A stretch of DNA of 64,000 bases from a virus (IMGVR_UViG_3300022660_003821); one strand, 5' to 3'; shown: positions 5,692-62,722, counted from the first letter of the stretch. The notes: a model not told the origin generated them from the letters alone. Numbers and translations are program-made.

Positions 5692-6315
5692 ATGGCTAAA
5701 ACAAATAGCAACAATCAGAGTGTAGCAACAAAGTTCAACGTAACTTTCGGTGTTCAGGGTTATGACGTGATACCCGCAAATGCAGCCGTGTTGCTCAATG
5801 AGCGCAAGATGCGTATTGACGGCGAACTCAAAAGCGTAACTGAGTTTATGGCTGTTGAGGGTGTAAAAAGCACCAAGAACACAGACCTCGTGCTTCCTGT
5901 ACTCGCCATTATGCTGGCAGATGCACGTACAAGAGGCGGTTTTGCAAGCGACTTCAAGGTGTGCGTAGTAGGCAGTCAGACCGTTGAAACCAAACTTACC
6001 GCCAAGAGTGCGTTTACCAAGTGGCTCAAAGGCAATGTCGTGTACAAGAGCAATAGCGAGGGTGTGCTCAACAAGGCACTCGTACTCGATGAGGGCTTGT
6101 ATCTCCGCAATACGGCTCTGCGTGTTAGCGAAAAGCAACCCATCTACTCTGCAACCGGAGATACCTTGCGTGTGTTGCTCTTCAAGACCGCTGAGGCTAT
6201 TACCAAGCAAGCGACAATGTTCAAGGACATCGTAGGTCAGGCAAAGAGCATCTTCAACGCTGCCTACACAGAGGCGAAACCTGCAACCAAGAGCGAGGAT
6301 AAAAACGCCGCATAA
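5692..6315 (+). CDS. hypothetical protein (207 aa)
   Basis: Clean ORF with a 450-bp leader carrying repeated GACATAC motifs, followed by a terminator. Confidence 0.55.
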   Translation: MAKTNSNNQSVATKFNVTFGVQGYDVIPANAAVLLNERKMRIDGELKSVTEFMAVEGVKSTKNTDLVLPVLAIMLADARTRGGFASDFKVCVVGSQTVETKLTAKSAFTKWLKGNVVYKSNSEGVLNKALVLDEGLYLRNTALRVSEKQPIYSATGDTLRVLLFKTAEAITKQATMFKDIVGQAKSIFNAAYTEAKPATKSEDKNAA

Positions 6316-6337
6316 CATACACATCTGCATAGCGACA

Positions 6338-6370
6338 CCGCCCAGCCTACACAGGTTGGGCGGTTTGCTT
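6338..6370 (+). terminator. rho-independent terminator
   Basis: CCGCCCAGCC-TACACA-GGTTGGGCGG followed by TTTGCTT. Confidence 0.65.
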
Positions 6371-6523
6371 ATATAACGTGTGGGCGCACATTATGTTACG
6401 TGTCCACACGCTTGTATGTGTAATATGTGCGTCCACATAAATAGGTGCGTGCGTATAATTGCGTCTTGTCGCTAATGCGTGAGTTTTCTCCACATTTTCC
6501 CGAACCCTCAAAAATGCTCAAAA

Positions 6524-10343: not shown

Positions 10344-11342
10344 ATGAACAAAAAAGTGAAAAAATATATGCCCGAATACGTGTGCTTGTATTACGTGGAT
10401 TATAACAGCAATTTGAACAACGAAACAAAAACTTTGCAGTCGTGTTTGACGCAAAATTCGCTGTACCCGTTAACTGAAAGCGTATTCGATTGGTGGGATT
10501 TCCCAGAAGAACATTATCTGGACGAAATCAAAGAGAAAATGCGTAAAGATGGCGTTGAGCATTTATTTGACGAGCATCTTGATGATATTCGTGATTGGCT
10601 ATACGACAATGACAAGTCCACACCTGTAGAAGATTTGTTGAGAAATACAGGTAGAATTGCATGTTTCTACGATTTAGGTGTAGAGCTGGATTGTGGGTGG
10701 CATGAAGCATTTATGTGTACGCCTTGGAGAAACGAATCCATTGCCTCTTGTGCATATAAAGTTCGCCGTAAGCTCGGCATTAAGAAAGGTACTCCAGAAG
10801 CAGAACAAATCTATAACATTTTGTGCAATGCAAGTTATGGTGGCTCTTTACGCATTTATTTCAATGGGGATATTGAATCACTCATTTCTGGAGATGAATA
10901 CCAAAGCGCGGACAATAAAAAAGATTTCCAGCAGATTCGCTTTAATGGTCGAGTTGCATTGGCAGTATATGACCCCACTAATGGTGCAGGTGATTTTGAA
11001 TACATGAATATTGATTGTGTATTCCCGTTTTTACGTGACAATCTATCTGTTTCCGATACTGATAAATACAGTTTGGAGCAATGTTTCGGTATGTGCGGAG
11101 ACTGGTTGGACAAATGTGTAAAGCCTGAGTTGTCAGTCGAGCCTCTGAAGAAAAAGCGTACAATGGAGAAATCTCCGGCAGCGGAATTGAGAAAGCGTGA
11201 AGCTGAACTTGATGCAGTTTTCAAAGCTGGAGGATGTACTGCCGGCGATATGGATATGCGCCGTCATAGAGATGTGTACTATGACAACAATATTCCATGC
11301 GGCCATCATTGTCCTCATTGTGGAACATTCTGGATTGATTGA
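10344..11342 (+). CDS. hypothetical protein (332 aa) with a Cys/His-rich C-terminus
   Basis: ORF two genes upstream of the reverse transcriptase, in the same operon. Confidence 0.5.
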   Translation: MNKKVKKYMPEYVCLYYVDYNSNLNNETKTLQSCLTQNSLYPLTESVFDWWDFPEEHYLDEIKEKMRKDGVEHLFDEHLDDIRDWLYDNDKSTPVEDLLRNTGRIACFYDLGVELDCGWHEAFMCTPWRNESIASCAYKVRRKLGIKKGTPEAEQIYNILCNASYGGSLRIYFNGDIESLISGDEYQSADNKKDFQQIRFNGRVALAVYDPTNGAGDFEYMNIDCVFPFLRDNLSVSDTDKYSLEQCFGMCGDWLDKCVKPELSVEPLKKKRTMEKSPAAELRKREAELDAVFKAGGCTAGDMDMRRHRDVYYDNNIPCGHHCPHCGTFWID

Positions 11343-11349
11343 TACGATT

Positions 11350-11835
11350 ATGACACAAAAAGATAACGGATACAAGTGGAATGCCGGAACTCAACCTTTA
11401 GAGAAATTGGTTGAGCCGAAGTTTAAGATTGAAAAAGGCAAATGGTATGTATGCATAAAAGACCTACTCGATAATTATGCAAACAAAGCATTTTGTAAAG
11501 GTGATACCTACTTATCTACACAAGACGGAAGTTTAATTCCATCAAATAGCAATGTTCCCTTTGAAGTAGTTTGTGATAGTACATATTTCAGAGATTGGAC
11601 TATCAATGATGCAAAGGATGGTGATGTGCTTGCCGCTCATGAATGTCTTGTGTTGTTTAAGAAACTTGATGGACTTAACATTAAATGTTATTGTACTTAT
11701 CATTTTATGGGTCATCAAAGTTTTTATGTAGATACATTGCAAAATAAGGATGCTTTTCATCCAGCTACCAAAGAACAACGTGACCTCTTGTTTCAAAAGA
11801 TGAAAGAAGCGGGTTATTATAAAACTTGGGAATAA
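11350..11835 (+). CDS. hypothetical protein (about 161 aa)
   Basis: Start taken from the ATG just after the upstream stop. Its 3' end overlaps the RT start by 10 nt, indicating translational coupling. Confidence 0.45.
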   Translation: MTQKDNGYKWNAGTQPLEKLVEPKFKIEKGKWYVCIKDLLDNYANKAFCKGDTYLSTQDGSLIPSNSNVPFEVVCDSTYFRDWTINDAKDGDVLAAHECLVLFKKLDGLNIKCYCTYHFMGHQSFYVDTLQNKDAFHPATKEQRDLLFQKMKEAGYYKTWE

Positions 11836-13100
11836 CTATGGCAGATATAATTTTACAAAAATTCTTCGAGATTGAACGCTGGGAGAAAGCGATTGAAAAG
11901 GGTGTTGTAAAAGACATTCGCAAGGATCAACTTATTAAGTTAACAAGCGAAGAAACTCGCATCCAGATGTATCGCGCTATGTATAACGGAACGTATGAAA
12001 TATCGCCTCCTCATACGGCAAAGATACCGAAGGATAACGGCGATTTTCGTACAGTTTATGTGAACGAACCTATTGACCGTATCGTTCTCAGCATAGCAAA
12101 TGACTTGCTGTTTGAACTTATGCCTGAAATGGTGCATAAGACATGTAAATCATATCAGACAGGTATTGGTTGTGGCAAGGTGGTACTGGAGGTTAGCAAC
12201 ACGATTGTAAGCGCGAACACAACAGACATTTTGGGGTGGAAAGCGGACCTTAGCAAGTATTTTGACAGCGTACCTATCAGATATATAGACGAGGCTTTTG
12301 ACAGAGTAGAAAAGAAATATGGTTACTCAGCATTAATACATGTCCTACGCAAGTATTATCATTGTGACTTGTATTTTGATGAAGATAATCAATTACATTC
12401 TGCTTATCAATCCTTAAAACAAGGTTGCGCGGTTGCCAGTTGGCTTGCAGATGTGTTATTATACAATCTGGATGAAGAGTTGTCCAAACTTCCAGGATAT
12501 TATGTTCGATATTCTGATGATATGCTGTATATCGGTTCTGACTATCAATGGGCAATGGAGTTGTTGCAACGCAGATTGTCCGAGATGGAAATGTCTTTGA
12601 ACCCCAAGAAAGTAGAATATCTGTCGGTCAATCAGTGGTTCAAGTTCTTAGGGTTTAGTATTAAAGGCAAAGACATTTCATTGTCTTCCAGTCGAATTAA
12701 AACATTTCAAAAAGAGGTTGAAGCACGTACAATAAAGAAACCGAAAGTGTCGCTTGACAAGGCAGTCCATTCAGTTAATCGTTATCTATACAAGGGTAAC
12801 GGTGAATTTAGTTGGGCTACTCAAATATTGCCGGTTTGTAATGTACAAAAGGACATTGATGAATTGAATAAATTCGTCATGGATTGTCTGAGGGCGGTGT
12901 CAACTGGAAAACGAAAAGTCGGTGGTCTTGGTTATGTAAAAAACAAAACAGATGGCTGCATCGTGCGAGGGCGAGGAAAGAATGTTACAGCAAACCGTAA
13001 CAAAACAGGTAAAATTGAGGGGTATTTAACTATCGGTTGTATGAGAAATGCCCTAATTACGAGCAGATCGGTATATAACACACTGGTCTTGTCTCTATAA
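11826..13100 (+). CDS. reverse transcriptase (424 aa), unclassified prokaryotic RT
   Basis: RT motifs 1-7 are readable: IPKDNGDFRTVYV, IDRIVLSIANDLL, ADLSKYFDSV, QGCAVASWLADVLLYNL, YVRYSDDMLYIG, LNPKK..FLGF. There is a basic 130-aa C-terminal extension. Confidence 0.85.
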   Translation: MGITMADIILQKFFEIERWEKAIEKGVVKDIRKDQLIKLTSEETRIQMYRAMYNGTYEISPPHTAKIPKDNGDFRTVYVNEPIDRIVLSIANDLLFELMPEMVHKTCKSYQTGIGCGKVVLEVSNTIVSANTTDILGWKADLSKYFDSVPIRYIDEAFDRVEKKYGYSALIHVLRKYYHCDLYFDEDNQLHSAYQSLKQGCAVASWLADVLLYNLDEELSKLPGYYVRYSDDMLYIGSDYQWAMELLQRRLSEMEMSLNPKKVEYLSVNQWFKFLGFSIKGKDISLSSSRIKTFQKEVEARTIKKPKVSLDKAVHSVNRYLYKGNGEFSWATQILPVCNVQKDIDELNKFVMDCLRAVSTGKRKVGGLGYVKNKTDGCIVRGRGKNVTANRNKTGKIEGYLTIGCMRNALITSRSVYNTLVLSL

Positions 13101-13139
13101 AGTGTAAATTGAGTATGCAATTGTGAATGAAGATACGAG

Positions 13140-14200
13140 CATTTATTCGACAGGTCTATTAACCAGAGTCCAGGAACCATTCATCCGGTATATCAACCGG
13201 ATTCAAGGTGCCAGGATTCTGGCATTAACCTGTCCATATCGAAAGAGTAAAGTTTCATACCATTCGTATGACATTCACACAAAGCACATTGTGTAGGTTC
13301 AAGGAATAAGGATTAAATATCCCGCGTTTAAGCAGCTCTACTGCGAGTCTGAAGGCCCTCTAACGATACGCCTTCGGACTCGATTATAGCTGATATACGC
13401 TGGAAATATCAACACAATAAAGGAATGTGCCAGTTATTATGAGAACCGAACAAACACTTAGCATAAAAGCGTGATTCAAGAGAATGAACTTCAATTTGCC
13501 GTCTGAATATGACGTTTCATGGCACGAGATTTCCACATCCTATCAGATGTTCCATCTCGTGATGGCGCACGTCATCTCTTACGACTAATATCTAATTCGT
13601 ATAGTGATATGCCAGCATTCCTGAGAATTACAAAAAGTTAGCATAAACGTATGGTTCAAGATGTGGAAAGTTTAATATTCAGAATGTAAGTCGATTCACA
13701 GCATCTGAATCCAGTTTATCTACTGGAATAAGATGCTGTTAATCAACATATTCTGAATTATATCAAAGCGATACAGTAATATGCCAACCGCATAGAGAAC
13801 CGTAAAAATAATCAGTATAGAATGGCAGTTCAAGTAATACATCTTCAATAACCCCGTGTCTAAGGACGGATTACCATCTCTCCATCACCCATATCTGGGT
13901 GATTCCTTGATGGTGAGCCGTCCAAGCACGGGCAATATCAAGACACTACAGAGATATACCGGTATTTTGAGATCTGCCGAAAAGCACGTATTGCAATACA
14001 AGGAGAAACCCTGATTTAATAGGCCGCGTTGCTAAATAAGCCCGCTGCCGGCGTGCAGTCTCCGTTATTACCGAGATGCACGCCGGCTACATGCTTCTTA
14101 ACGCGGCATATATCATACGATTATAGGAACGTGCCATTTCTATGAGTATTGCAGAACTTAACACAAAGTGAGAAGTCAAGATTAGAGGCTTCATTGTGCA
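13140..14200. repeat. at least 6 degenerate tandem repeat units of about 170-190 bp, sharing the consensus ATATGCCA..TGAGAA..AAAAA..AGCATAAA..GTATGGTTCAAG
   Basis: Hand alignment of the units keyed near 13235, 13423, 13607, 13777, 13960 and 14133 gives roughly 60-70% identity. There are no ORFs of 60 aa or more in any frame. Confidence 0.6.
14047..14087. other. GC-rich perfect hairpin with an 11-bp stem, GCCGGCGTGCA/TGCACGCCGGC
   Basis: Perfect inverted repeat around a 19-nt loop. Confidence 0.6.
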
Positions 14201-14365
14201 GCTTCAGATTACAAGGGCACCACGCATTCACCAGCCGATCGAGCTGGTTCTACAGGTGCCCACTGTAACAAAGCTGCATACATCGAATAACTATAGTCAT
14301 GTGTCATTCTAATTGAGACTTCATGGTAACGCAACCGATTCTTACACAAGCAATCAACATTTAAG

Positions 14366-14430
14366 ATACAGTATTATACCTGGATCCTGAAGTAATTAAC
14401 ATGGACTTCAGGATCCAGGACATACTGTAT
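14366..14430. other. 65-nt near-perfect hairpin with a 24-bp stem
   Basis: ATACAGTAT-TATA-CCTGGATCCTGAAGT on the 5' side, loop AATTAACATGG, ACTTCAGGATCCAGG-AC-ATACTGTAT on the 3' side. Confidence 0.75.
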
Positions 14431-14494
14431 ATATCAAGTATGTAAAGCAATGCGTCAATGATTTGAGTGTGAATTATTTAATAACATTTTAAGT

Positions 14495-14953
14495 ATGAGT
14501 AACATCTATCAAAATGCGATTTCTGCCGTTGAGAACGGTGCGAAATTCAAGGTCAATTTTCAAGAGCGAAGTCTGAAGATTGACGGTAAGTACATCATCG
14601 AAAACGGTGTGTATGAAGGTGAACTGGGAGTAGCGAAAGCGGATGAGCGAGAATGTTTGTCGGAGGTGGAAATGTTGTACCAACGATACAAGCATTCTGT
14701 CCCGTCAGAGCGTAGTGAAAGTAAAGCGCGACAATACTTCAGAACCTTGTCAGAGCTTGATTTGAGCGATGACGATATGATGTTTGGTGAACGAAGAGAC
14801 AAAGCGCAAATCGAACTGGAATTGTATTTCTTATGCCAAATCATTCTTGGCTTCCAGTGGAATGCTGAAACAATGGGTAATTGGTTTTGGCAAAGTGGTA
14901 ATGACAAAGACTTGGTGATACTCAAAGATTGGGTGGAGCCTACAAATAAATAA
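14495..14953 (+). CDS. hypothetical protein
   Basis: ORF. Confidence 0.5.
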   Translation: MSNIYQNAISAVENGAKFKVNFQERSLKIDGKYIIENGVYEGELGVAKADERECLSEVEMLYQRYKHSVPSERSESKARQYFRTLSELDLSDDDMMFGERRDKAQIELELYFLCQIILGFQWNAETMGNWFWQSGNDKDLVILKDWVEPTNK

Positions 14954-14985: not shown

Positions 14986-16068
14986 ATGGCTAAAAAGAAG
15001 TCAAACGAGACAAAGGTGTTGTGCCCTAACTGCGGCACAGAGTTGGCAATCCCCGCACAGTCATCTATTGCTGTCGGTGTAATCATTGGTAAGGACGCTG
15101 GTCTGGGTACTGTATATGCTCCTGCTGCTGATAAGCAAAAGCGTAGCGCACAGGAACGTATCGAGGCATTGCGAGCTGCTGGGGTTGACGTAAGTAATCT
15201 ATTCGCTATGCAGGGTGCAAATGGCGGTGAGTGTATCGCTTGCAACAAGGATGGCAAACTCTCTATCTTGGACGATGACGATCCAATCTTCCAGTACATT
15301 TTGACGAATGGTACTATACCTAACCGAAAGTTGTTCAGACGCTGGGTGATGGCGCAGATGTTTTACATGATGGCCGCTGAAGACTATAAGACACATCAGC
15401 GTTATGGCGTAACTGCTATGATTCATCGTCTTGGTTACGAGTACACCTGGAAGATGTTATTGAACGAGTTGCACGCTCAGGTCAAGATGGCAAAGCACAA
15501 TGACCGTGAGAACTTTGAGGACCGCCATCGTTGGTTCAATCAGGCGGTAGTAATGCAGATGGCAAAGCATTATATCAGTGAGTTGCAGAAGTTTGTAGAC
15601 CGTAAACCTGAGAAGAGATGTAAAGGTGTGCCATACAAGACAATTGGCGGCAAGCATATCTTCGTGTCTGATTTGCGTAGTAAACTCTATAACAAGTTCT
15701 GGATGGGTCTTGGACAAATCCGTAATGCGAAGACAATTGAGCAGTTGTATGTGGCTACAAAGAATTTCAACGACAAGCGTTTGAAGTTGGATTGGGACAC
15801 TCCTCAGTGCTGTGAGTGGATTGACGCTTACAAGGGTTCTGGTGCCTACTTTACACTCCAGAACATGATTCGTTTCCACAATTGCCACATCATTGATGAT
15901 GCCGGAAAGAAGTTGGATAAGGAATTGTCTTTACAGTTCATCAAGGCCAAAGTAACTATGTATTGCAACGGTGATGGATGGAGAATGTTGGCGGTTCTGA
16001 AGAAATGTCTGGAAGATAACAATATTGACATCCGTGCCAAAATTAAGTCATGGAGAAAGCGTAAGTAA
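14986..16068 (+). CDS. hypothetical protein with an N-terminal zinc ribbon (CPNCGTE)
   Basis: 360-aa ORF. Confidence 0.5.
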   Translation: MAKKKSNETKVLCPNCGTELAIPAQSSIAVGVIIGKDAGLGTVYAPAADKQKRSAQERIEALRAAGVDVSNLFAMQGANGGECIACNKDGKLSILDDDDPIFQYILTNGTIPNRKLFRRWVMAQMFYMMAAEDYKTHQRYGVTAMIHRLGYEYTWKMLLNELHAQVKMAKHNDRENFEDRHRWFNQAVVMQMAKHYISELQKFVDRKPEKRCKGVPYKTIGGKHIFVSDLRSKLYNKFWMGLGQIRNAKTIEQLYVATKNFNDKRLKLDWDTPQCCEWIDAYKGSGAYFTLQNMIRFHNCHIIDDAGKKLDKELSLQFIKAKVTMYCNGDGWRMLAVLKKCLEDNNIDIRAKIKSWRKRK

Positions 16069-33360: not shown

Positions 33361-33433
33361 CGCGGGATAGAGAAGTGGCCATCTCGCTTGGCTCATTACC
33401 AAGAAATCGTGGGTTCGAGTCCCACTCCCGCTA
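33361..33433 (+). tRNA. tRNA-Met (CAT), with a C1:U72 mismatch
   Basis: Hand-folded cloverleaf: D stem GAGA/TCTC, anticodon stem CTTGG/CCAAG with loop CTCATTA, T arm GTGGG-TTCGAGT-CCCAC. Confidence 0.7.
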
Positions 33434-33447
33434 CTAAACAAACAACA

Positions 33448-33951
33448 ATGAGGAACTACGGACCAGTTAGCAAAATGAATCTATTGTCTTCTGACGAGTT
33501 TAGAGAGGTTGTTAAGAAAGGACATACTTGGGTGGAGATTTCTGAATTGCTTGGTTATAAACACACCATCTCTTCTAATCTCAAAACTACGTTCTTAAAA
33601 AGATGTAATGAACTTCAGGTATTTCCAACATTCATCTCTAAAAGAGTGAAAACAATGGATGAAACCAAAGGACGGCTCTTCAAAAAGAGAAAGAATTGGT
33701 GGAGTGCAGCAGCTGGTATTAGAAAGGCCGCGAGACAAGTCTATATAGAATCTGGAAAGCCATTGTGCTGTGCGGTGTGTGGATATTCGCATTATTTTGA
33801 AGTTGCGCATATCAAACCTGTTTCAGCATTTAGTGATGACACTCCAGTGTCAGAAATAAATCATCCAGATAACCTAATAGGTTTATGTCCAAACCATCAT
33901 TGGGAATTTGATAATGGATTATTAAAATTAACGATAAACAAACAATTATGA
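33448..33951 (+). CDS. HNH endonuclease
   Basis: CCAVCGY..H..N..CPNHH is an HNH motif. The start is placed after the tRNA; the track ORF 33388 overlaps the tRNA. Confidence 0.65.
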   Translation: MRNYGPVSKMNLLSSDEFREVVKKGHTWVEISELLGYKHTISSNLKTTFLKRCNELQVFPTFISKRVKTMDETKGRLFKKRKNWWSAAAGIRKAARQVYIESGKPLCCAVCGYSHYFEVAHIKPVSAFSDDTPVSEINHPDNLIGLCPNHHWEFDNGLLKLTINKQL

Positions 33952-34157
33952 ACGATTTTAAGCAACGTAGAGAAGGCATTCTCAGTGTATTCAATCAGGC
34001 AAAGCAAGATTTGGAGACTTTGAATGCTGACATTCAAACTAAGATTGAAGCAAACCAAGCACAGATTGCTTCACTTGCAAGCCAAAATACCGAGTTGGCC
34101 GCACTTAAAAGTAGCAACGAATCGTCAATCAAGACATTCAGCAAATTCTTTAAGTAA
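33948..34157 (+). CDS. small coiled-coil protein
   Basis: ORF. Confidence 0.35.
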   Translation: MNDFKQRREGILSVFNQAKQDLETLNADIQTKIEANQAQIASLASQNTELAALKSSNESSIKTFSKFFK

Positions 34158-34166
34158 TTAAGGTGC

Positions 34167-34246
34167 GTCCCAGTGGTGAAATGGTAAACACATTGGGTTT
34201 AAGCCCCAACGCCTTTGGCTTGTAGGTTCGAGTCCTATCTGGGACA
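34167..34246 (+). tRNA. tRNA-Leu (TAA), type II
   Basis: Acceptor GTCCCAG/CTGGGAC, anticodon loop TTTAAGC, long variable arm, T arm GTAGG-TTCGAGT-CCTAT. Confidence 0.7.
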
Positions 34247-34279
34247 CAATGCTGGGAAGAGCCAGCAGAAATTAGTTCT

Positions 34280-35128
34280 TTGACATTAAAAATGATTAAC
34301 AGCATGAAGAAATTTATGTATTTATTGATTGCGCTATTTGCTTGCGTATCATTTACAAGTTGTCATGGCGTTATGCCTGGTGCAGATGAAGAAGCAGTGT
34401 TGGTTCATAAGCCTTGGTTCTTTGGACATGGAGGCGTTGATAAGGAGCCTGTGACTACCGGGTGTACATGGTGTTGGTGGAGTACAAGTTCGGAGACGTT
34501 CAAGATTATCCCGGTTAAATATACCGAGAAGTTGGATGACATTATCTCAAACGAGAACACACCATTGGACTTCAACACTATGATTACACTTCAAGTCCAA
34601 AAAGGTAAATCTCCCCTATTGCTTGAAAACTACGGTGTGAATTGGTATGATAATAACATCAAGGAAACGTACAATAACCTTACACGACATTATGTTTCCC
34701 AGTATTCGCCATTCGATTTAACAAGTAACCGAGAAGTCATCGCACATATAGACTCTTGTGTAAAAGCAGATATGGTTAAATATATTGCCAAGCTATCTGA
34801 AAGCAAAGAGTTCCCAGTCACGGTGGTTAATGTAATTACAGGACGAGCGATTCCTAATAACGCTCAGTTAGCTGAAATGAATAATACCGCAGCTCAAATA
34901 CAGGCCAGACAGACTCAGGAACGAAGATATGAAATGGAGTTAGCACGAGAGAAGGCTGAGAGCCAGCGTGCGATTTCAGATAAAGCATATCAGCAAAAGA
35001 TGGGTTTGACTGCCGAACAGTTCATCAGTCTGAAGGCTTGGGATGTTATCAGTGAAAAACAGGGTGCTAATATTGATGTCCTATTCAATGCTGATGCGAC
35101 CAGTAAAATGTGGAATGTCCGGCGATAA
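34280..35128 (+). CDS. SPFH/Band-7 domain lipoprotein
   Basis: Signal peptide with a Cys (LFACVSFTSC). The C-terminal helical segment ...QARQTQERRYEMELAREKAESQRA... is stomatin/HflC-like. Confidence 0.55.
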   Translation: MTLKMINSMKKFMYLLIALFACVSFTSCHGVMPGADEEAVLVHKPWFFGHGGVDKEPVTTGCTWCWWSTSSETFKIIPVKYTEKLDDIISNENTPLDFNTMITLQVQKGKSPLLLENYGVNWYDNNIKETYNNLTRHYVSQYSPFDLTSNREVIAHIDSCVKADMVKYIAKLSESKEFPVTVVNVITGRAIPNNAQLAEMNNTAAQIQARQTQERRYEMELAREKAESQRAISDKAYQQKMGLTAEQFISLKAWDVISEKQGANIDVLFNADATSKMWNVRR

Positions 35129-35165
35129 CGCAAATCATAAATCAAACGAGGCGTAACAGCCTCAT

Positions 35166-35238
35166 GGAGCCTTAGCTCAGTTGGGAGAGCGTCTGCTTTG
35201 CACGCAGAAGGTCGTGAGTTCGACTCTCACAGGCTCCA
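35166..35238 (+). tRNA. tRNA-Ala (TGC)
   Basis: Acceptor GGAGCCT/AGGCTCC, anticodon loop TTTGCAC, T arm GTGAG-TTCGACT-CTCAC. Confidence 0.75.
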
Positions 35239-35243
35239 CATTC

Positions 35244-35315
35244 GCCCGATTCGTCTATCGGTTAGGACGCAAGATTTTCATTCTTGAAAGAGGAGTTCGA
35301 CTCTCCTATCGGGTA
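35244..35315 (+). tRNA. tRNA-Glu (TTC)
   Basis: Anticodon stem CAAGA/TCTTG with loop TTTTCAT, T arm AGGAG-TTCGACT-CTCCT. Confidence 0.7.
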
Positions 35316-35620
35316 CATTAGCCCTAAGTACACGGGATCGAAACCTCTCAGGCCCCGTCTCTGAGACCAGATCGTTAGCTGGGTGGTTGCTGCGCCATGA
35401 CAGAAGCAGCACTTAGATATAAGCCTGAATGCGCACAGGAACGAAGACACTGCACACTTAAAAAGTTCTGAAAAGAGAAGTGTAAAGGGCGGTCCAAATC
35501 GTAGGTTGGCGAGTGTTTACCGAGCTGGGTATTTTGTCGGTTCCAGGTGTTGAATTGGGGTTCAAATCCTTACATACCAGCGAAAGCCGGTATGCCATCA
35601 GGGGAAGTTTAGCACCACTT

Positions 35621-35694
35621 GTCTTGGTAGCTCAGTAGGTTAGAGCACTGCCCTGATAAGGCAGAGGTCGCAAGTTCAAGTCTTGCCTGAGACA
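35621..35694 (+). tRNA. tRNA-Ile (GAT)
   Basis: D stem GCTC/GAGC, anticodon stem CTGCC/GGCAG with loop CTGATAA, T arm GCAAG-TTCAAGT-CTTGC. Confidence 0.7.
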
Positions 35695-35763
35695 CAACCA
35701 TTAAAAATGGCTTAATTGATTGACAATTCCAGTGTGTTCTTGTGAAAGCTCATGCTGGAGAAT

Positions 35764-35847
35764 GGAAGGTAAAGTAGCGAGGTCGCTGCAACGGTCTTGA
35801 AAACCGATTGTCCTTTACGGGATTCTCTTCGAGTGGGATGCCTTCCG
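35764..35847 (+). tRNA. tRNA-Ser (TGA)-like, type II, with weak anticodon-stem and T-stem pairing
   Basis: Anticodon loop CTTGAAA in an E. coli Ser(UGA)-like context, with a long variable arm and an imperfect T stem. Confidence 0.5.
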
Positions 35848-35851
35848 CAAT

Positions 35852-35938
35852 GGTAGATTGACAGAGTGGACGAATGTGACGGTCTGCAAAACCGTATGAG
35901 TTAAATCTCACGCGCTGGTCCGAATCCAGCATCTACCT
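35852..35938 (+). tRNA. type II (Ser-like body) tRNA with anticodon GCA
   Basis: Acceptor GGTAGAT/ATCTACC, D stem ACA/TGT, anticodon stem ACGGT/ACCGT with loop CTGCAAA, variable-arm stem TGAG/CTCA, T arm GCTGG-TCCGAAT-CCAGC. Confidence 0.55.
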
Positions 35939-36003
35939 CATCGCTGTAGGATAATTTCGTTCCCCTTCCTATTCTACAGCATCGCCCCAATCGTGGGGCA
36001 CTT

Positions 36004-36076
36004 ATGGGTGTAGCACAGTTGGTAGTGTTCTTGGTTTGGGACCAAGAGGTCGCAGGTTCGAGTCCTGTCATCCATA
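36004..36076 (+). tRNA. tRNA-Pro (TGG)
   Basis: Anticodon stem CTTGG/CCAAG with loop TTTGGGA, T arm GCAGG-TTCGAGT-CCTGT. Confidence 0.6.
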
Positions 36077-36093
36077 CAAGAATTTATTAGACG

Positions 36094-36279
36094 ATGGATG
36101 ATAAAATAGTTAAAGCTATTGACAAATTATTTGCAGAAGCTCGCCAAGGCAATAAAGAGTCTTTTGAAATTATTGGTGAAATATTTAGTAAAGTAACCCA
36201 TGAAATGATAGTATCTCAAAGTTGTACTGAACAAATGAGACGAAATTATTCACGGTTCAAAAGATATAACATGAAATAA
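36094..36279 (+). CDS. small hypothetical protein (61 aa) between tRNA genes
   Basis: ORF. Confidence 0.3.
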   Translation: MDDKIVKAIDKLFAEARQGNKESFEIIGEIFSKVTHEMIVSQSCTEQMRRNYSRFKRYNMK

Positions 36280-36291
36280 TAATTTGTATAT

Positions 36292-36366
36292 GGGTTAATT
36301 AGTTCAATGGTCAGAACGCCTGTTTGTGGCACAGGAGACGGCAGTTCGATTCTGTTATTAGCCCCA
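36292..36366 (+). tRNA. tRNA-His (GTG) with G-1 and an encoded CCA
   Basis: D stem GTTC/GAAC, anticodon stem CCTGT/ACAGG with loop TTGTGGC, 3' end ATTAGCC-C-CA. Confidence 0.7.
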
Positions 36367-36368
36367 AA

Positions 36369-36429
36369 GGAACTGGTAGCTCAGTTGGCAAGAGACTTGG
36401 GTCGGTGGTTCGAGTCCACCTCAGTTCCC
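36369..36429 (+). ncRNA. tRNA-like element of about 61 nt without a proper anticodon arm; possibly a tRNA pseudogene
   Basis: Acceptor GGAACTG/CAGTTCC, D-loop-like AGCTCAGTTGGCAAGAG and T arm GGTGG-TTCGAGT-CCACC are all present. Only a 3-bp GAC-TTGG-GTC mini-hairpin stands where the anticodon arm should be. Confidence 0.4.
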
Positions 36430-36540
36430 TCAAAACCATTCGGGGTTAAGTGGAAGCCCGCCCCTGCGCATGAGTTTATGAGTACCTTGAACTCAACAAA
36501 CACTTATCGGGACATGGTGGTTAGGGTTGATCCATCACAT

Positions 36541-36613
36541 AGTGCATTAGTTCAGTGGTTAGAACGCCTGCCTGTCACGCAGGAGGTCACGGGTTCGAGT
36601 CCCGTATGCACTG
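36541..36613 (+). tRNA. tRNA-Asp (GTC)
   Basis: Perfect acceptor AGTGCAT/ATGCACT, anticodon loop CTGTCAC, T arm ACGGG-TTCGAGT-CCCGT. Confidence 0.75.
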
Positions 36614-36618
36614 CAATT

Positions 36619-36705
36619 GGAGGCGTGGGTGAATTGGTAAAACCACCACACTGCTAACGTGGCTGTCGTGAAAGCGGCTTGCAGGTTCGAAACCTGCCGC
36701 CTCCG
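36619..36705 (+). tRNA. tRNA-Ser (GCT), type II
   Basis: Acceptor GGAGGCG/CGCCTCC, anticodon loop CTGCTAA, long variable arm, T arm GCAGG-TTCGAAA-CCTGC. Confidence 0.7.
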
Positions 36706-36727
36706 CAATAACTTAATAGAAACAATT

Positions 36728-36952
36728 ATGAGCAACAAAACAACAACATCTGGAACAGGCATATCTTTTTTAGGTTTGCTTGCTATCGTTTTCATTACAT
36801 TAAAATTATGTAACGTCATCACTTGGTCATGGTGGTGGGTAACTGCTCCATTATGGGGAGGACTTGCTTTTTGGTTGGCCATTACTATTATTGCAATGGT
36901 ATGTTACGTGTTGATGTTACTGATTAAATGTATGGCAAAACGTAAGTCATAA
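36728..36952 (+). CDS. small two-transmembrane-helix protein (75 aa)
   Basis: Internal Met of ORF 36659..36952, placed after the tRNA-Ser. Confidence 0.4.
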   Translation: MSNKTTTSGTGISFLGLLAIVFITLKLCNVITWSWWWVTAPLWGGLAFWLAITIIAMVCYVLMLLIKCMAKRKS

Positions 36953-36958
36953 ATAGAT

Positions 36959-37029
36959 TGCTCTGTGGTGTAATGGTAACACATTAGATTTTGGTCCTGA
37001 GATTCCAGGTTCGACCCCTGGCAGAGCAA
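36959..37029 (+). tRNA. tRNA-Gln (TTG)
   Basis: Perfect acceptor TGCTCTG/CAGAGCA, D stem GTGT/ACAC, anticodon loop TTTTGGT, T arm CCAGG-TTCGACC-CCTGG. Confidence 0.65.
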
Positions 37030-37072
37030 CTAATCATTTTACGTAAAGCCTCAATTCGCATCTTTCTCGATA

Positions 37073-43078: not shown

Positions 43079-44125
43079 ATGTCAGTTAGTAAAATTCCAT
43101 GTGCGTTGTTAATCAACGACATACACGCATCTAAAGATAACATTGCTGAATTTCATGCAAACTGGGATGAGGCAGTTGAAATCTGTCAAAAGCGTGATAT
43201 TCCAGAAATTATAGTTGGAGGCGATTTGTGGCTTTCTCGTTCTTCTCAAACTCTCAGTACATTATTAGCGGTTCGCCAGGCTATTATCAAGGCTACAAAT
43301 GCTGGCATAGACGTTACGTTGGCTGAAGGTAATCACGATAAGGTAGATCAAGAATCGCTGCTTGGTTATAGCCATATATTTAGTGAATACCCACATGTAT
43401 ATATTGTGGATGATTATACAGCACTTGAATATGGTGATAATCTGACATTATATGTCATGAGCTACTTCCCAGAAGACGGCAGCTTCATTAAACGCCTTAA
43501 TGAAATTCTGGAAAATGATTTCGATCATAGGAGGCATAATGTGCTGTATATTCATGAAGGTATAAATGGCGCATTGGCAACTGCAAACGAAAAAGAACTT
43601 CCCAGTAAAATATTCAAAGACTTTGATGCTGTATTGGTAGGGCATTACCATAACCGTTGCAAAATTCAAGGAACTAATATCGAATACATTGGCAGTTCTC
43701 GTCAACACAATTTCGGAGAGGACGAAGCGAAAGGCTACACGATTCTCTATACTGATGGTAGTTATGAGTTTGTGGAAAATCAGGCGAACACCAGATATAA
43801 GGTAATGGACCTTTCTTTATCTCAGGTAAATGTTCAATTACTGGAGCAATTGTCCGAACTGAAAGAATCAGGCAAATATAAGGTTAAAGCTCGTATCAAC
43901 TGTGACACGACAGAAGTGTCCAGTATCGACAAGCAGAAACTTATTGAAGCTGGTGCTACGAAGGTAGAAATTGTGACAGAGCGCATTGAAATCACAGAAG
44001 TAGACTCTCATAGTTTGGATCAAAAATTTGATAAAAACGGAATTAAAAAAGAGTATGTAGGCTTTTGTGACGGTAAAGAGATTTCTTCTGAAATGGGATT
44101 AAAGTACCTTGATAAAATTGATTGA
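43079..44125 (+). CDS. Mre11/SbcD-like nuclease (T4 gp47-like)
   Basis: Phosphoesterase motifs DIH, GGDLW and GNHD. Confidence 0.75.
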   Translation: MSVSKIPCALLINDIHASKDNIAEFHANWDEAVEICQKRDIPEIIVGGDLWLSRSSQTLSTLLAVRQAIIKATNAGIDVTLAEGNHDKVDQESLLGYSHIFSEYPHVYIVDDYTALEYGDNLTLYVMSYFPEDGSFIKRLNEILENDFDHRRHNVLYIHEGINGALATANEKELPSKIFKDFDAVLVGHYHNRCKIQGTNIEYIGSSRQHNFGEDEAKGYTILYTDGSYEFVENQANTRYKVMDLSLSQVNVQLLEQLSELKESGKYKVKARINCDTTEVSSIDKQKLIEAGATKVEIVTERIEITEVDSHSLDQKFDKNGIKKEYVGFCDGKEISSEMGLKYLDKID

Positions 44126-46448
44126 TATGTGGACATTAAGACATATACACGCTAAAAATCTCTGTGCGTTTAGGCAACTTGATTACGATGTTCAACAGCA
44201 ACGAACCACATTGATTTTTGGCAACAACTTAGACAACGACTCCCAGGCTTCTAATGGATCTGGGAAATCAGCTCTTATAGAGGCGATTGCAATTGTATTG
44301 ACTGGAAGCCCGTTGCGTAAGGTTGGCGTTGATGAAATCATTAACGACAATGAAAACGAGGCTGTTATTTCTGCGATTCTCAAAAATGATATGCTGGGTG
44401 AACAACTTACCATTTATCGCCAGTTATCAAGAAAGCAACCGCAGGTCATTCAAGTCATCAAGCAGACAGGTCCTTATGATACTGACTGTGAAGATGTAGC
44501 TCAGGCTTCTGTTGCAGATTATAACAAATACATCCTTGACACTATTGGACTCACAAAAGAAGAGATTTATGCCAATTTTATTTTATCTAAGCATAAATAC
44601 ACTTCTTTCCTTTCCAGTTCTGATAAGGACAAAAAGGAAATCATTAATCGTTTTAGCAACGGTATTTTGGTTGACGAGTCTTTAGCAATTCTACAAGCAG
44701 ATATGGCTCCTATACAAGAAGAGTTAAAATCTGCTGAAGGCAATGTAGCGATGGCTTCTGGTAAAGTATCGGCAATCAGTGAACAGATTGCAACTGAGTT
44801 GGCTGAGGCTACTGAAAAGTCACAGAATAAGAGCAAACGTATTGCAGAATTGAAAGACAAGATTGCAAACAAGCGCGAATACATCCGTGAACAAAATAGC
44901 ATCATTAGCAAGAATAATGAGCGTTTGGATGCACTGGATATAGTAGATGCTAAATTGCAGAAGCTGGAGAAATCAAGTAAAGTGATTGAAGAACTGCAAA
45001 TTCAAATAAACACATTGTTTGGACAACACGGATTATCCAGTTTGCCAGATTATGTGAAGCGAGTTGAAAGTTTGATTACTCAAATTGATTCACTTCATGC
45101 AACACATAAGCAATTGCAAAAGGACGCTAAAGCTAAAGAAAAGGAATTGGCAGCAATAACCAAGTCGCTTAATAGCATCAAAGCGCAGTATGAGCAATTT
45201 GAAGCAACATACAATTCTCAGTCAAGCACTCTAAAAGCAGAAATGCAACGGTTGGCTCGTTCTGTTGAGGAGTTGCAAGAAGAGCAAGCAAAGCTGCAAC
45301 GAAAGCGTCAGCAAATTGAGCGAACTATTGCGTCATTGCAAGCGCAGTTGGCAGGAGTGATCATGTGCCCTAAATGTTCACATGAGTTTACTTTGGCTGG
45401 AGATGTTGATATTGAAGGTGTGCGCAAGCAGGTGTCAGACAAGCAAGATGAGCTGGAGGACACGAAGCAAGAGTTTGATGATAAATGCAAGCAAGTTGAT
45501 GACATTACAGAACAAGGTCGTAACAAACGTAAATCATACAATGCTCTCGCTGAACAGAAAGCTACTATGAGTGCAGAGGTAAATAATGCACAAGTATTAG
45601 TGAACAATGCTCAGGCTGAATTAAACCGTATCTCTTCTTCGTTGCTCTCTATTACTGGAAGCATCGACAAAATAACAAAGGAGATTACTGATATTCGTCT
45701 TGAACTATTCGACAAAGCATTCGAGATTCTTGATATTGCAATCAAAGGTTGTGAAACAGAATCTCAGAATGCAGAAATCAATCGCCAGAATGCTGATGGT
45801 GCCATTAAGTCATACGAAGAGGCAATCAAGGATATTGAAGAATCTTCCGCAACTGATTTGATTGACAACTTGAAAGCAAGCAAGGAGCGTTATGAGGAAG
45901 AGTGGAATAAGGCGATTGCGCACCAAGAAGAGGTTGCAGCAAAGTTGGCAGATTATAAAGCTCAGGAAGCTACTTTCATTGAGTTCAAAACCCATTTGGC
46001 GAATACAAAGATCAATGACCTTAGTAGAATTACGAATGAGTTTCTTGAACGTATTGGTAGCGATATACGAATTGCATTTTCAGGTTATACTGTTTTGAAA
46101 TCCGGTAAAATTAGAGATAAGATTTCTATTTCACTGATTCGAGACGGAGTTGATTGTGGCTCGTTTGATAAATTCTCTGAAGGTGAGAAAGCACGAGTAA
46201 ACTTGGCCAATATTTTGGCAATGCACAAATTGACTAACGTAAACTGTGCAGAAGGTAAGGGCCTTGATTTGCTCGTATTAGACGAGATCTTAGATGCCAC
46301 CGATGAATCAGGATTGGCAAATATCTTTGAGGCACTTAACTCACTCCAGATTACGTCACTGGTGGTTAGTCACGGTAATATTGCTGAGAACTATCCATAC
46401 AAATTGGTAGTCAACAAACAAAACGGTGTATCATTTATTAATGGTTAA
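44109..46448 (+). CDS. Rad50/SbcC-like ATPase (T4 gp46-like)
   Basis: Walker A GSGKSALIEA, long coiled coil, CPKC zinc hook, and a D-loop at VLDEILDATD. Confidence 0.8.
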   Translation: MIKLIDMWTLRHIHAKNLCAFRQLDYDVQQQRTTLIFGNNLDNDSQASNGSGKSALIEAIAIVLTGSPLRKVGVDEIINDNENEAVISAILKNDMLGEQLTIYRQLSRKQPQVIQVIKQTGPYDTDCEDVAQASVADYNKYILDTIGLTKEEIYANFILSKHKYTSFLSSSDKDKKEIINRFSNGILVDESLAILQADMAPIQEELKSAEGNVAMASGKVSAISEQIATELAEATEKSQNKSKRIAELKDKIANKREYIREQNSIISKNNERLDALDIVDAKLQKLEKSSKVIEELQIQINTLFGQHGLSSLPDYVKRVESLITQIDSLHATHKQLQKDAKAKEKELAAITKSLNSIKAQYEQFEATYNSQSSTLKAEMQRLARSVEELQEEQAKLQRKRQQIERTIASLQAQLAGVIMCPKCSHEFTLAGDVDIEGVRKQVSDKQDELEDTKQEFDDKCKQVDDITEQGRNKRKSYNALAEQKATMSAEVNNAQVLVNNAQAELNRISSSLLSITGSIDKITKEITDIRLELFDKAFEILDIAIKGCETESQNAEINRQNADGAIKSYEEAIKDIEESSATDLIDNLKASKERYEEEWNKAIAHQEEVAAKLADYKAQEATFIEFKTHLANTKINDLSRITNEFLERIGSDIRIAFSGYTVLKSGKIRDKISISLIRDGVDCGSFDKFSEGEKARVNLANILAMHKLTNVNCAEGKGLDLLVLDEILDATDESGLANIFEALNSLQITSLVVSHGNIAENYPYKLVVNKQNGVSFING

Positions 46449-49704: not shown

Positions 49705-50740
49705 TATGTATATAAGTAGAGAAGATAAAGAGTTCTTGATTAAAGAACTTATGATAGAACTCAAAGCTAAGCCAGATGGCGGCAATAAGAACTTAATTGT
49801 TCCACGTTGCCCCTACTGTGGTAAAGAGGGTGGAAAGTTTGGAATTTATATCGGTAAAGAGACTGATAAAAAGAAACTTTTCATGAGCCATTGCTTCTCA
49901 TGTCATCATACGACAAAAGATATTAACCAACTTTTAGATGACATAGGCCGACCCGATTTGAAATTGGAAGACACAGCTTCGTTTCAGCCTTTGGAGATCC
50001 CTCAATTCTTCTCACTGGAAGAGGAGGAAATTGATGATGAGTTGTCAATTGTGGAAATGCCTGAAGGCTGGAAGCGGTGTTTTAGGAACTCTTATTTACA
50101 CAGCAGGGGATTTACATTTGATGATTACGAATACTTCCCTGTTGGTACCACAAGAGGTCTTAACTTTAAGTTCGACAATTATGTAGTATTCCCAATTATT
50201 GACAATGGCGATACAGTTGGGTATATCTCTCGACATATTTGGGATAAGTCTGAAATAGATGAATACAATAAGAAAGCAAGGCGTAACGGTAAATATGAGA
50301 TAAGGCGTTACAATAACAGCATAGAAAACGACTTCGTAAAATTACTGTATAACTATGACTCTATTATTGAAGATGAGACTGATACAGTAATAATTGTAGA
50401 AGGGATTTTTGATGTTATTGCTCTTACTCGGAAATTGGATTTGTACGACAATACTCGTATTGCAGTTGTTGCGACCTTCGGCAAAAAGATTTCCAATACG
50501 CAGATTTGGAAATTGCAAAGCAAGGGGGTAAAAACGGTCATATTGGGTTATGACGGTGATGCCGTAGATGCTATAAATACAGCAGCCATACAACTCAATG
50601 ATTATTTTGATGTTTTTATCGCCTACATAGAAGACCCGGATGCAGATTTTGATAGTATGGATTTCTGGGAAATTTTCGATGTGTTTTCTATGTCTTTGAA
50701 GACCCCAGTAGAATATAAACTTAATACAGTGCAGATATGA
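49697..50740 (+). CDS. DnaG-like primase (zinc finger plus TOPRIM)
   Basis: CPYCG..CFSCHH zinc site; TOPRIM residues at IIVEGIFD and GYDGDAVD. Confidence 0.75.
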   Translation: MGNMYISREDKEFLIKELMIELKAKPDGGNKNLIVPRCPYCGKEGGKFGIYIGKETDKKKLFMSHCFSCHHTTKDINQLLDDIGRPDLKLEDTASFQPLEIPQFFSLEEEEIDDELSIVEMPEGWKRCFRNSYLHSRGFTFDDYEYFPVGTTRGLNFKFDNYVVFPIIDNGDTVGYISRHIWDKSEIDEYNKKARRNGKYEIRRYNNSIENDFVKLLYNYDSIIEDETDTVIIVEGIFDVIALTRKLDLYDNTRIAVVATFGKKISNTQIWKLQSKGVKTVILGYDGDAVDAINTAAIQLNDYFDVFIAYIEDPDADFDSMDFWEIFDVFSMSLKTPVEYKLNTVQI

Positions 50741-52445: not shown

Positions 52446-53747
52446 ATGACAATAACCGATGAAATGAAGAAAGCCATTGAGTTGATAGAAACAACCAATG
52501 AGAGTGTGTATATTACAGGTAAGGCTGGTACGGGAAAGACCACATTCCTTAAATGGCTGGTTTGTAACTGTAAGAAAAAATTTGTTGTTACCGCTTCCAC
52601 TGGCATTGCCGCCATTAACGCTGGAGGTGTGACGTTGCATAGTTTTTTGAATATTCCTTTTGGAGTTCATAATCCTAACTCTGCTGTCACTCAATTTAAT
52701 CATTCAAAAATTGAGTTGATGAATACAATAGATGCTCTAATCATTGACGAAATAAGCATGGTGCGTCCAGATACCATAGATTACATTGACCAAAAATTAC
52801 GCATGTATAGAAATAGTGACGAGCCATTTGGGGGCGTACAAATCATCATGTTTGGCGATTTGTATCAACTGCCACCTGTTGTTACAAACAATGAAAAAGA
52901 CATCCTTCTCCAGTTCTATCGTGGCGTGTACTTTTTCTATGCGTATGTATTCAGAAAGCATGGATTTCATATTGTTGAATTAAATCATATCTTCAGGCAA
53001 ACTAATCCAAGGTTCATTGAAATATTGAATAACATCCGTTCTTATAAGTTGACACAAGAAGATATTGAGGATCTGGAGGTGTTACGAGATAGAAAGTTAA
53101 GTGAGGAGTACGATAATCAGTATATTCATATTTGCTCATATCGTAAAGATGTTCAACGTATAAATGAGGAGCTATTGGGAACACCAACCCACACCTATTA
53201 TGCTACAATTGAAAAAGATTTCAATTTAAGTTCCGCACCATGTGATAGAAAATTGTCATTACGTGTTGGCGCACGGGTGATGATGTTAATCAATGACAAG
53301 GCTCACGTCTACTGCAATGGCTCTCTGGGCGTAGTTGTAGGATTGGATGATAAAGTAGTCAAGGTGCAGTTAGATAATGGCTGTACGGTGGCCGTAGAGC
53401 GTTGTGAATGGTCTGCACAAGAATATAAGATGAAGAATGGTAAAATTGTAAGTGAAATTAAAGGAACTTGTAAACAATTTCCTCTAACATTAGCGTGGGC
53501 AATTACTATTCATAAAAGTCAAGGCTTAACATTTGACCATGTAGTAGTTCATACAAAAGGAGTGTTTTGTCCCGGACAGGTATATGTTGCGTTAAGCCGA
53601 TGTACATCACTTGAAGGCATAATTTCCGATGTTTTTATCGACCATCGTCATATCCTCCCAGATGACGAATTATTAGCATTTGAAAAGGCTTATAATGCCA
53701 CGCACAACTTCTTTAATAGAGAGACTTATAAATTGATGAGACAATGA
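52446..53747 (+). CDS. Pif1/RecD-family helicase, encoded between the two DnaE fragments
   Basis: GKAGTGKTT, LIIDEISMV, GGVQIIMFGDLYQLPPV, ITIHKSQGLTFDHV and YVALSRC. Confidence 0.8.
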   Translation: MTITDEMKKAIELIETTNESVYITGKAGTGKTTFLKWLVCNCKKKFVVTASTGIAAINAGGVTLHSFLNIPFGVHNPNSAVTQFNHSKIELMNTIDALIIDEISMVRPDTIDYIDQKLRMYRNSDEPFGGVQIIMFGDLYQLPPVVTNNEKDILLQFYRGVYFFYAYVFRKHGFHIVELNHIFRQTNPRFIEILNNIRSYKLTQEDIEDLEVLRDRKLSEEYDNQYIHICSYRKDVQRINEELLGTPTHTYYATIEKDFNLSSAPCDRKLSLRVGARVMMLINDKAHVYCNGSLGVVVGLDDKVVKVQLDNGCTVAVERCEWSAQEYKMKNGKIVSEIKGTCKQFPLTLAWAITIHKSQGLTFDHVVVHTKGVFCPGQVYVALSRCTSLEGIISDVFIDHRHILPDDELLAFEKAYNATHNFFNRETYKLMRQ

Positions 53748-62258: not shown

Positions 62259-62323
62259 TAATTAAAGAAAAAGACGCACCATTGGAAGGCACGTCTTGAT
62301 TATATAGTTACGAAACAAGATAT

Positions 62324-62650: not shown

Positions 62651-62722
62651 ATTGTTATTCTTTTATCGTTTTAATAAGAATAGGAAACATACGATGATAG
62701 GGTTTATAAAGTCTCTCACTTT

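Follow-up and report, generated by a model that had tools for sequence, protein, structure and literature searches.

The 64,000-nucleotide stretch of viral DNA studied here (IMGVR_UViG_3300022660_003821, referred to below as the window) contains what, judged by profile matches and gene arrangement, is a complete UG27 system, built around a class 2 UG/Abi reverse transcriptase (RT). The parts of the system follow one another in the order RT, non-coding RNA (ncRNA) array, RTas346 and RTas337, with the downstream genes on the same strand as the RT. The RT gene occupies positions 11826-13100 on the plus strand, giving 424 codons when read from a TTG, with a probable ATG start at 11838, and its translation contains the catalytic active site YSDD. 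Residues 5-424 of 424 match positions 1-420 of the 420 in the PADLOC profile RT_UG27 (E = 2.6e-228), while the runner-up PADLOC profile, UG26, reaches E = 2.4e-34 and the Pfam profile RVT_1 reaches E = 8.4e-19. Two UG27-associated genes lie further along the plus strand: RTas346 (14495-14953, 152 amino acids, PADLOC RTas346 E = 3.1e-69) and RTas337 (14986-16068, 360 amino acids, PADLOC RTas337 E = 2.9e-141). RTas337 has an N-terminal CxxC motif, a helical C-terminal two thirds and 1442 homologues, and a model of it made with AlphaFold 2 (predicted local distance difference test score 72.6) matched generic helical bundles only. The setting is also that of a UG27 system. A 1394-nt gap, poor in open reading frames (ORFs) and containing long stem-loops, separates the RT from cluster 346, and the context is that of a gut phage, with a terminase, an integrase and a replisome encoded in the window.

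The array and its eight units

The UG27 ncRNA array spans 13108-14471 on the plus strand, beginning 8 nt past the RT stop codon and stopping 24 nt short of the next start codon. The preliminary description of this DNA had marked 13101-14494 as free of ORFs of 60 amino acids or more, and this is correct, the longest in that interval being 57, 52 and 50 amino acids. Tandem Repeats Finder, a tool of the type proposed in that description, returned no rows for the region because the units are too degenerate. Instead, segments picked by eye were aligned to reveal a shared core, from which a profile hidden Markov model (HMM) and then a covariance model were built. The covariance model was seeded with 23 modules, three of them from the window, leaving five of the window's eight modules outside the seed. 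It finds exactly eight modules, spanning 13232-14516 (E = 5e-15 to 2e-4), and no match better than E = 5.6 elsewhere in the 64 kb. By both models the modules start at 13232, 13402, 13584, 13756, 13931, 14106, 14276 and 14427, all on the plus strand, with the profile HMM copies spaced about 150-185 nt apart; the mean column identity of the module alignments is 41-63%. The six tandem units described earlier, near 13235, 13423, 13607, 13777, 13960 and 14133, are thus real and fall inside modules 1-6, while modules 7 and 8 had been missed. The motifs of the earlier consensus, ATATGCCA, TGAGAA, AGCATAAA and TTCAAG, all reappear in the alignments.

When the arrays of several phages are placed side by side, they start with a hairpin and end with half a module, the variable A-rich linker occupies the middle of each module, and the sequence right after the RT stop codon resembles the 3′ half of a module. 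These features therefore indicate that the natural unit is phased differently from the repeat as first drawn, starting and ending in the A-rich linker that lies in the middle of the earlier unit, and in this phase the array contains eight complete units. Each of these units, of about 170 nt, opens with a small stem-loop, with a six-base loop of the A-GCACA type, followed by TTCAAGG and TTYAAT. An imperfect hairpin of about 30 bp follows, its sequence specific to the unit and its tip of the CTAAC/CTATC type. The 3′ part consists of AYATC-N7-TAAAG-N2-A, a TGTGC-type pentamer and then C, a YTGAG motif and the A-rich linker.

All eight units lie on the plus strand, and in each of them the five loop bases form five of five Watson-Crick pairs with the downstream pentamer. 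Unit 1 (13108-13275) has its stem-loop at 13108-13121 with the loop GTATG at 13113-13117, ATGAAG at 13127-13132, a hairpin at 13150-13235 (z = -6.7), ATATC at 13236-13240 and the partner CATAC at 13256-13260. In unit 2 (13279-13447), the stem-loop at 13279-13292 carries the loop GCACA (13284-13288), TTCAAG follows at 13298-13303, and the hairpin at 13324-13400 (z = -6.5), which is homologous to the 'AGTCTTGAAGG' hairpin of relatives, precedes TGTGC (13426-13430). Unit 3 (13456-13628) pairs the loop GCATA (13461-13465) with TATGC (13608-13612), a compensated change from G-C to A-U, and contains TTCAAG (13475-13480), TTCAAT (13490-13495) and a hairpin at about 13496-13582; its module scores E = 6e-13. 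Unit 4 (13636-13800) uses the same pair, GCATA at 13641-13645 and TATGC at 13780-13784, around TTCAAG (13655-13660), TTTAAT (13671-13676) and a hairpin at 13681-13754 (z = -5.8). Unit 5 (13810-13975) has the loop GTATA (13815-13819), TTCAAG (13829-13834), TTCAAT (13844-13849), a hairpin at 13855-13930 (z = -7.0) and TATAC (13955-13959). Unit 6 (13979-14150) has the loop GCACG (13984-13988), ACAAG (13998-14002), TTTAAT (14015-14020), a hairpin at 14025-14105 (z = -5.6) that holds an 11-bp GC stem, and CGTGC (14130-14134). Unit 7 (14156-14320) has the loop ACACA (14161-14165), GTCAAG (14175-14180), a hairpin at 14197-14274 (z = -3.6) and TGTGT (14300-14304). Finally, unit 8 (14324-14471) comprises the loop ACGCA (14329-14333), ACAAG (14346-14350), TTTAAG (14360-14365), a hairpin at 14366-14430 (z = -6.8), TGCGT (14451-14455) and a TTTGAG tail.

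Mutual information over 212 distinct modules singled out the stem that closes the AGCACA loop. Among 139 distinct model-aligned modules this stem is 88.8% paired, with all four of its pairs double-changed in 55-69 sequences; over the alignments the paired share of cells ranges from 82.6 to 88.8%, and the covariation score is 0.67, versus at most 0.17 when the partners are slid. The five bases of this loop are complementary to the pentamer 3′ of the long hairpin within one unit. An RNAalifold prediction on MAFFT-aligned modules had placed the TGTGC/GCACA pairing inside one module, but a comparison of registers rejected this, assigning as partner the loop of the preceding module, across the hairpin. 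In the window, the clamps are perfect in all eight units and come in seven sequence variants, with partners 122-147 nt apart; only 2 of 40320 partner permutations equal this pairing, and the neighbouring register matches at 2-5 of 5 positions. Counted across loci, 140 of 182 unit pairs are perfect in the cognate register, versus 51 of 209 and 39 of 131 in two control registers. When 60 whole units from related phages are aligned, 99.7% of the clamp positions pair; each of the five positions shows compensatory changes, and the exceptions are 11 G-U pairs and one non-standard pair. The closest named relative, Bacteroides phage BS-TP1 (PQ571274; RT 69% identical), has the same architecture of eight units, in which six clamps are perfect, one contains a G-U pair and one a terminal C-A, and it adds the variants GTGCA/TGCAC, GTGTA/TACAC and ACGTA/TACGT. 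On this comparative evidence, the loop-pentamer helix is an H-type pseudoknot that carries the long hairpin in its connecting loop, and it should gather the invariant single-stranded motifs around the base of that hairpin.

The long hairpins themselves are well supported, with z-scores of -3.6 to -7.0 against dinucleotide shuffles for seven of the eight in the window. The remaining one (13482-13582, unit 3) scores -1.95 with the boundaries used; by eye, it has a long stem, ATGACGT...ACGTCAT. All three stems named in the preliminary description are present: the 11-bp GC stem of unit 6, GCCGGCGTGCA at 14047-14057 paired with 14077-14087; the nested stems at 14199-14280; and the stem at 14366-14430, which has a perfect 15-bp core (14379-14393/14405-14419). 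Among the 251 distinct hairpins collected, the median number of enclosing pairs is 31; in their apical loops, CTAAC is about 25-fold and CTATC about 17-fold enriched. Of the 67 cases with a tip motif, 51 have it at a distance of 43-46 nt from AYATC, and hairpin length therefore seems, from these distances, to be held constant. As an observation on its own, the apical loop of the first hairpin (13150-13235) is TATATCAA, flanked by CCGG/CCGG and identical to the ATATCAA motif that follows every hairpin; this ATATCAA runs straight into TTCAAGG, a motif otherwise found 5′ of hairpins.

Hairpin sequences differ unit by unit. Phages with RTs about 75% identical share homologues of the first and the last hairpin; both covary, the last-hairpin family doing so across 28 phages with double changes at seven pairs. 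Internal hairpins differ between phages and vary in number, and units 3-5 of the window have no counterpart except in one near-identical relative, L019 (IMGVR_UViG_3300006747_000005). The arrays of the window and L019 are about 100% identical over 13330-14200, while unit 1 and the RT C-terminus are 86-90% identical. In the unit 7 hairpin, the middle of the stem (14205-14227 and 14243-14266) is wholly different on both arms with pairing retained, around a conserved apex (CCAGCCGAT..GCTGG). The stem swap on both arms, together with the uneven identity to L019, points to mosaic or cassette-like exchange within the array.

These hairpin data bear on whether the array could work as a single template of the DRT2 type, copied by rolling circle or template jumping into a protein-coding concatemer, or as a multi-guide array that yields small regulatory RNAs without reverse transcription. 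Copies of a TATC-type motif sit at the tip and immediately 3′ of the hairpin, some 44 nt from each other, which could in principle allow repeated jumping, and the A-rich linkers could be processing sites. However, the tip-to-flank distance obeys no multiple-of-three constraint (24, 12 and 31 cases in the three classes modulo 3), and the Drt2 profile matches the RT weakly (E = 5.9e-12, versus 2.6e-228 for UG27). As for guides, a comparison of the hairpins with the rest of the 64-kb window found complementarity only in the form of chance-level 11-13-mers, and perfectly self-paired stems of 30 bp make poor guides. Both versions are very improbable.

Linkage to the UG27 genes and strand of action

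Related loci were sampled in three ways: by the RT, by the two-module DNA pattern alone and by RTas337 alone. Selection by RT gave 19 loci, all with the RT; 18 of them reach RTas346, one contig ending just past the RT, and in all 18 a gap of 811-1494 nt containing 5-8 modules separates the two genes. Selection by motif gave at least 120 viral loci, with UG27 genes in every locus that has flanking DNA, while in bacterial genomes 29 of 30 matches are UG27 loci and the other one is a chance match lacking modules. The hosts of these bacterial loci are Bacteroides, Alistipes, Phocaeicola, Butyricimonas and relatives. RTas337 has 418 relatives in IMG/VR; among close relatives (56-80% identity), the RT, RTas346 and modules between them are present in all 76 loci with enough upstream DNA. 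Here, the median gap is 869 nt, equal to five units, which places the window, with eight units, at the upper end of the range. Throughout the informative loci sampled, then, the array, of 5-8 units, is found only between the UG27 RT and RTas346, and neither repeats without the RT nor the RT without repeats was seen in the clade, the kind of pairing that the preliminary description had asked to have checked in homologous phages. Besides BS-TP1, the relatives include a human faecal contig, IMG/VR contigs and Bacteroides and Alistipes genomes.

Two features of individual relatives may be mentioned beside these counts. In three loci (L003 at about 6125-6372, and also L007 and L017), an extra ORF of about 80 amino acids by eye, starting MTAKEIEIGKWYH, lies between the last unit and RTas346; it is missing from the window. 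A Bacteroidales-2 RNA (Rfam RF02943, 407-417 bits) is found on the minus strand of L007 (1203-1592), L016 (120-508) and L017 (114-501), about 2.4-3.9 kb upstream of the UG27 RT in each, with no counterpart in the window.

The modules are all on the same strand as the RT. At the three best pairs of the model, a selection made post hoc, there are 40 G-U against 2 A-C combinations, while pooled over all seven model pairs the counts are 62 G-U and 74 A-C, which is not significant; the contrast is thus informative at well-paired positions and at the pseudoknot only. That the exceptions at these positions are G-U rather than A-C fits a plus-sense single strand and points to plus-strand RNA. Since the array starts 8 nt after the RT stop codon, it is most likely read on the plus strand within the RT transcript.

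The same evidence decides against a DNA element, either a replication origin with iterons or cruciforms or a pac/cos region, as the preliminary description had suggested in the alternative. Such an element would account for repeats and inverted repeats in an ORF-free stretch, and the phage encodes SbcCD-like hairpin nucleases as well as its own replisome. The modules, however, occur on one strand only, a pseudoknot between loop and strand can be understood only as a single-strand structure, and the exceptions within it are G-U and not A-C. There is no turn of GC skew at 13-14.5 kb; the genes for helicase, primase and polymerase are found at 48-56 kb, some 35 kb away, and the terminase gene at 60-62 kb. 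Moreover, the array travels only with UG27 genes, through phages of several families (Mestre et al., PMC9226505). An origin or packaging site is therefore scarcely credible here. The contrary proposal of the preliminary description, a structured ncRNA belonging to the upstream RT, is strongly supported by the strict co-occurrence, by covariation in the small stem-loop, the long-range pseudoknot and the last-hairpin family across homologous phages, and by the asymmetry between G-U and A-C. That the array is the cognate RNA of the UG27 RT is, on comparative grounds, well supported.

Proposed function of the array and its relation to known systems

Our reading of the region, to which we assign a probability of roughly 0.8, is that it is the ncRNA array of a phage-encoded UG27 RT system, composed of eight self-folding, clamped units whose hairpins would be copied into complementary DNA (cDNA). 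In this reading every unit folds independently, with A-rich linkers in between, and pairing between the loop and a pentamer about 140 nt away clamps the base of the long hairpin and gathers the invariant motifs there. What the comparisons show is the units, the two covarying helices, the hairpins, the plus-strand sense and the strict linkage to UG27 genes; the steps beyond these are proposed. The clamp and the base motifs would then form a docking site for the RT, one per unit, while the hairpin tip, at its fixed distance, would be read by a partner, either the RT or RTas346/RTas337. From the hairpin, the RT would make a discrete cDNA that is itself hairpin-shaped, one per unit, so that 5-8 small DNAs could arise from one enzyme. 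In essence, such a system would resemble retron-like msr-msd units repeated in tandem. A role of these products in priming replication is disfavoured, given that the phage encodes a primase of its own.

Several points weigh against this reading. The role of template for hairpin cDNA is inferred by analogy, from the precedents of retrons and of DRT2 and DRT9, and from phrase counts in the 2026 preprint cited below. RTas346 and RTas337 yielded no functional clue in profile and structure comparisons. The second small stem (YTGAG) is paired in 68% only. Hairpins folded in the minus sense are more stable by 3.2 kcal/mol (63 versus 21, p = 5e-8); shuffles of equal composition have the same bias (p = 0.11), and hairpin energy was dropped as a strand signal since this control reproduces it. 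Mismatches in the hairpins number 27 G-T versus 42 A-C (p = 0.09). Finally, a scan for sigma-70 promoters and terminators, which does not cover Bacteroidota and phage promoters, performed at chance level.

A further alternative keeps the structured RNA and its partners but not the copying. The RNA would bind the RT, RTas346/RTas337 or both, either as a multivalent scaffold by which several protein complexes are assembled or regulated or as a decoy, and DNA synthesis, if any, would be untemplated or protein-primed. Many UG/Abi RTs make DNA without an RNA template, among them AbiK, Abi-P2 and DRT1, whose synthesis is untemplated or protein-primed, and invariant motifs at the base and tip of the hairpin, a fixed distance apart, are what would be expected of a protein-binding scaffold. 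In contrast, DRT2 and DRT9, the class 2 relatives with a known mechanism and an ncRNA, use the RNA as a template. The conservation of unit-specific hairpins between phages with RTs about 75% identical also suggests that the hairpin sequence itself matters, and the words 'cDNA hairpin' appear in the 2026 preprint that treats UG27 ncRNA arrays. We regard a role without copying as unlikely.

A more elaborate form of the copied-hairpin reading can also be put forward. Here, the units would be individually addressed, clamped templates kept in register, with hairpins measured by a protein complex from their base to the CTAAC/CTATC tip, unit number expanding from 5 to 8 and stems exchanged as cassettes, giving the virus a changeable set of hairpin DNAs. 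The clamp pair differs between units (seven variants in eight), which under this addressing would let long arrays fold in register. If true, this would be a multi-product retroelement in the service of viruses and not of their hosts; the proposal is tentative and, taken as a whole, doubtful.

What likens the array to retrons is a conserved recognition part plus a long template hairpin, located beside the RT and held shut by a short helix of the 5′ and 3′ flanks, and this suggests that the UG27 array may resemble a retron in working principle, possibly with a hairpin cDNA as product. The two differ in that the RNA here lies downstream of the RT, whereas that of retrons lies upstream, and in having many units per RT rather than one. 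In addition, closure here is by a 5-bp pseudoknot between loop and strand and not by a1/a2 repeats. The system is not itself a retron, as the best retron profile, RT_Ec107-like, reaches E = 1.7e-11, versus 2.6e-228 for UG27, and no Rfam retron family matches. Nor did Rfam 15 give any match at gathering score in the window array or in 15 related loci; the best sub-threshold match, RT-16, scored 20.5 bits against a gathering score of 50 and is absent from the relatives.

DRT2 (UG2) and DRT9 (UG28) are class 2 UG/Abi RTs in which a single adjacent structured ncRNA is both scaffold and template. The UG27 locus shares with them the RT class and a dedicated structured ncRNA beside the gene. However, their ncRNA is single and lies 5′ of the RT, DRT2 yields a concatemeric gene and DRT9 poly-dA, both belong to host defence and not to phages, and their RTs are only weakly similar to UG27. 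Identity with DRT2 was rejected on the Drt2 profile score given above (E = 5.9e-12), the position of the array downstream of the RT and the lack of a reading-frame constraint. CRISPR arrays likewise alternate conserved repeats with variable inserts and vary in unit number, but here the repeats are about 80 nt long and 60-70% alike, and the 'spacers' are self-paired hairpins inherited between phages instead of acquired protospacers. A CRISPR array was also rejected on the profile searches, in which there was no Cas-specific match and CRISPR-library matches fell only on the RT's own RT domain.

The preliminary description held that the size and internal periodicity of the region match no described RT-RNA pair, and this does not stand, since the enzyme belongs to UG27, a group whose intergenic ncRNA has been on record since 2022. 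Mestre et al. (2022; NAR 50:6084, PMC9226505) defined the UG27 system in human-gut phages of Bacteroidota and Firmicutes, counted 1447 dereplicated gut viral genomes that carry it, predicted for the RT-346 intergenic region a conserved ncRNA 'with three long stem-loops' and reported CRISPR spacers against this RNA. The locus described here agrees with theirs in RT group, in both accessory genes, in intergenic position, in its long stem-loops and in the type of host, gut phages of Bacteroidota; it differs from that account in having, in place of three long stem-loops, an array of 5-8 units with a re-phased unit, a pseudoknot, a tip motif and a length ruler. The system and its ncRNA have thus been known since 2022, and the present finding is a rediscovery of a described system and not of a new kind of element. 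A preprint of 24 September 2026, 'Coevolutionary mining of prokaryotic non-coding elements with a genome language model' (bioRxiv 10.64898/2026.09.22.753630), contains, by phrase count, UG27 (74), 'UG27 ncRNA' (11), 'UG27 ncRNA array' (2), 'ncRNA array' (10), 'cDNA hairpin' (2) and 'pseudoknot' (12). Judged by these counts, the array concept has apparently been known since that preprint, and the re-phased unit, together with its clamp, tip motif and ruler, may be new or may already be contained there.

Among the UG/Abi RTs, UG27 is the only group whose carriers are mainly phages, not bacterial defence islands, and it is widespread. The unit model gives its array parts that can be tested, namely the clamp pentamers, the base motifs, the tip motif and the fixed arm length, and BS-TP1, an isolated phage, is available as an experimental system.

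The phage background

The window represents a temperate-looking phage that encodes an integrase, a terminase, a helicase, primase and polymerase of its own, and 11 tRNAs. Two overlapping ORFs (332 and 212 amino acids), at 10344-11835 and thus directly upstream of the RT, have no match in Pfam, PHROG or PADLOC; the second stops 10 nt inside the RT ORF as listed. At 43079-46448, an SbcD-like (Metallophos) gene and an SbcC-like gene form a pair of the hairpin- or palindrome-specific nuclease type, and a functional link between this pair and the hairpin-rich RT array would be pure speculation. On the minus strand, 60675-64000 holds the large terminase subunit (60675-62258) and a tyrosine integrase (62723-64000), and the GC skew changes sign there; the phage is probably temperate. 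The 11 tRNA genes lie on the plus strand at 33361-37030 and comprise Met, Leu, Ala, Glu, Ile, Cys, Pro, His, Asp, Ser and Gln. The DNA polymerase III alpha-like gene is split in its nucleoside triphosphatase domain into ORFs at 50737-52443 and 53744-55915, and a PIF1-like helicase gene (52446-53747) lies between the two halves.

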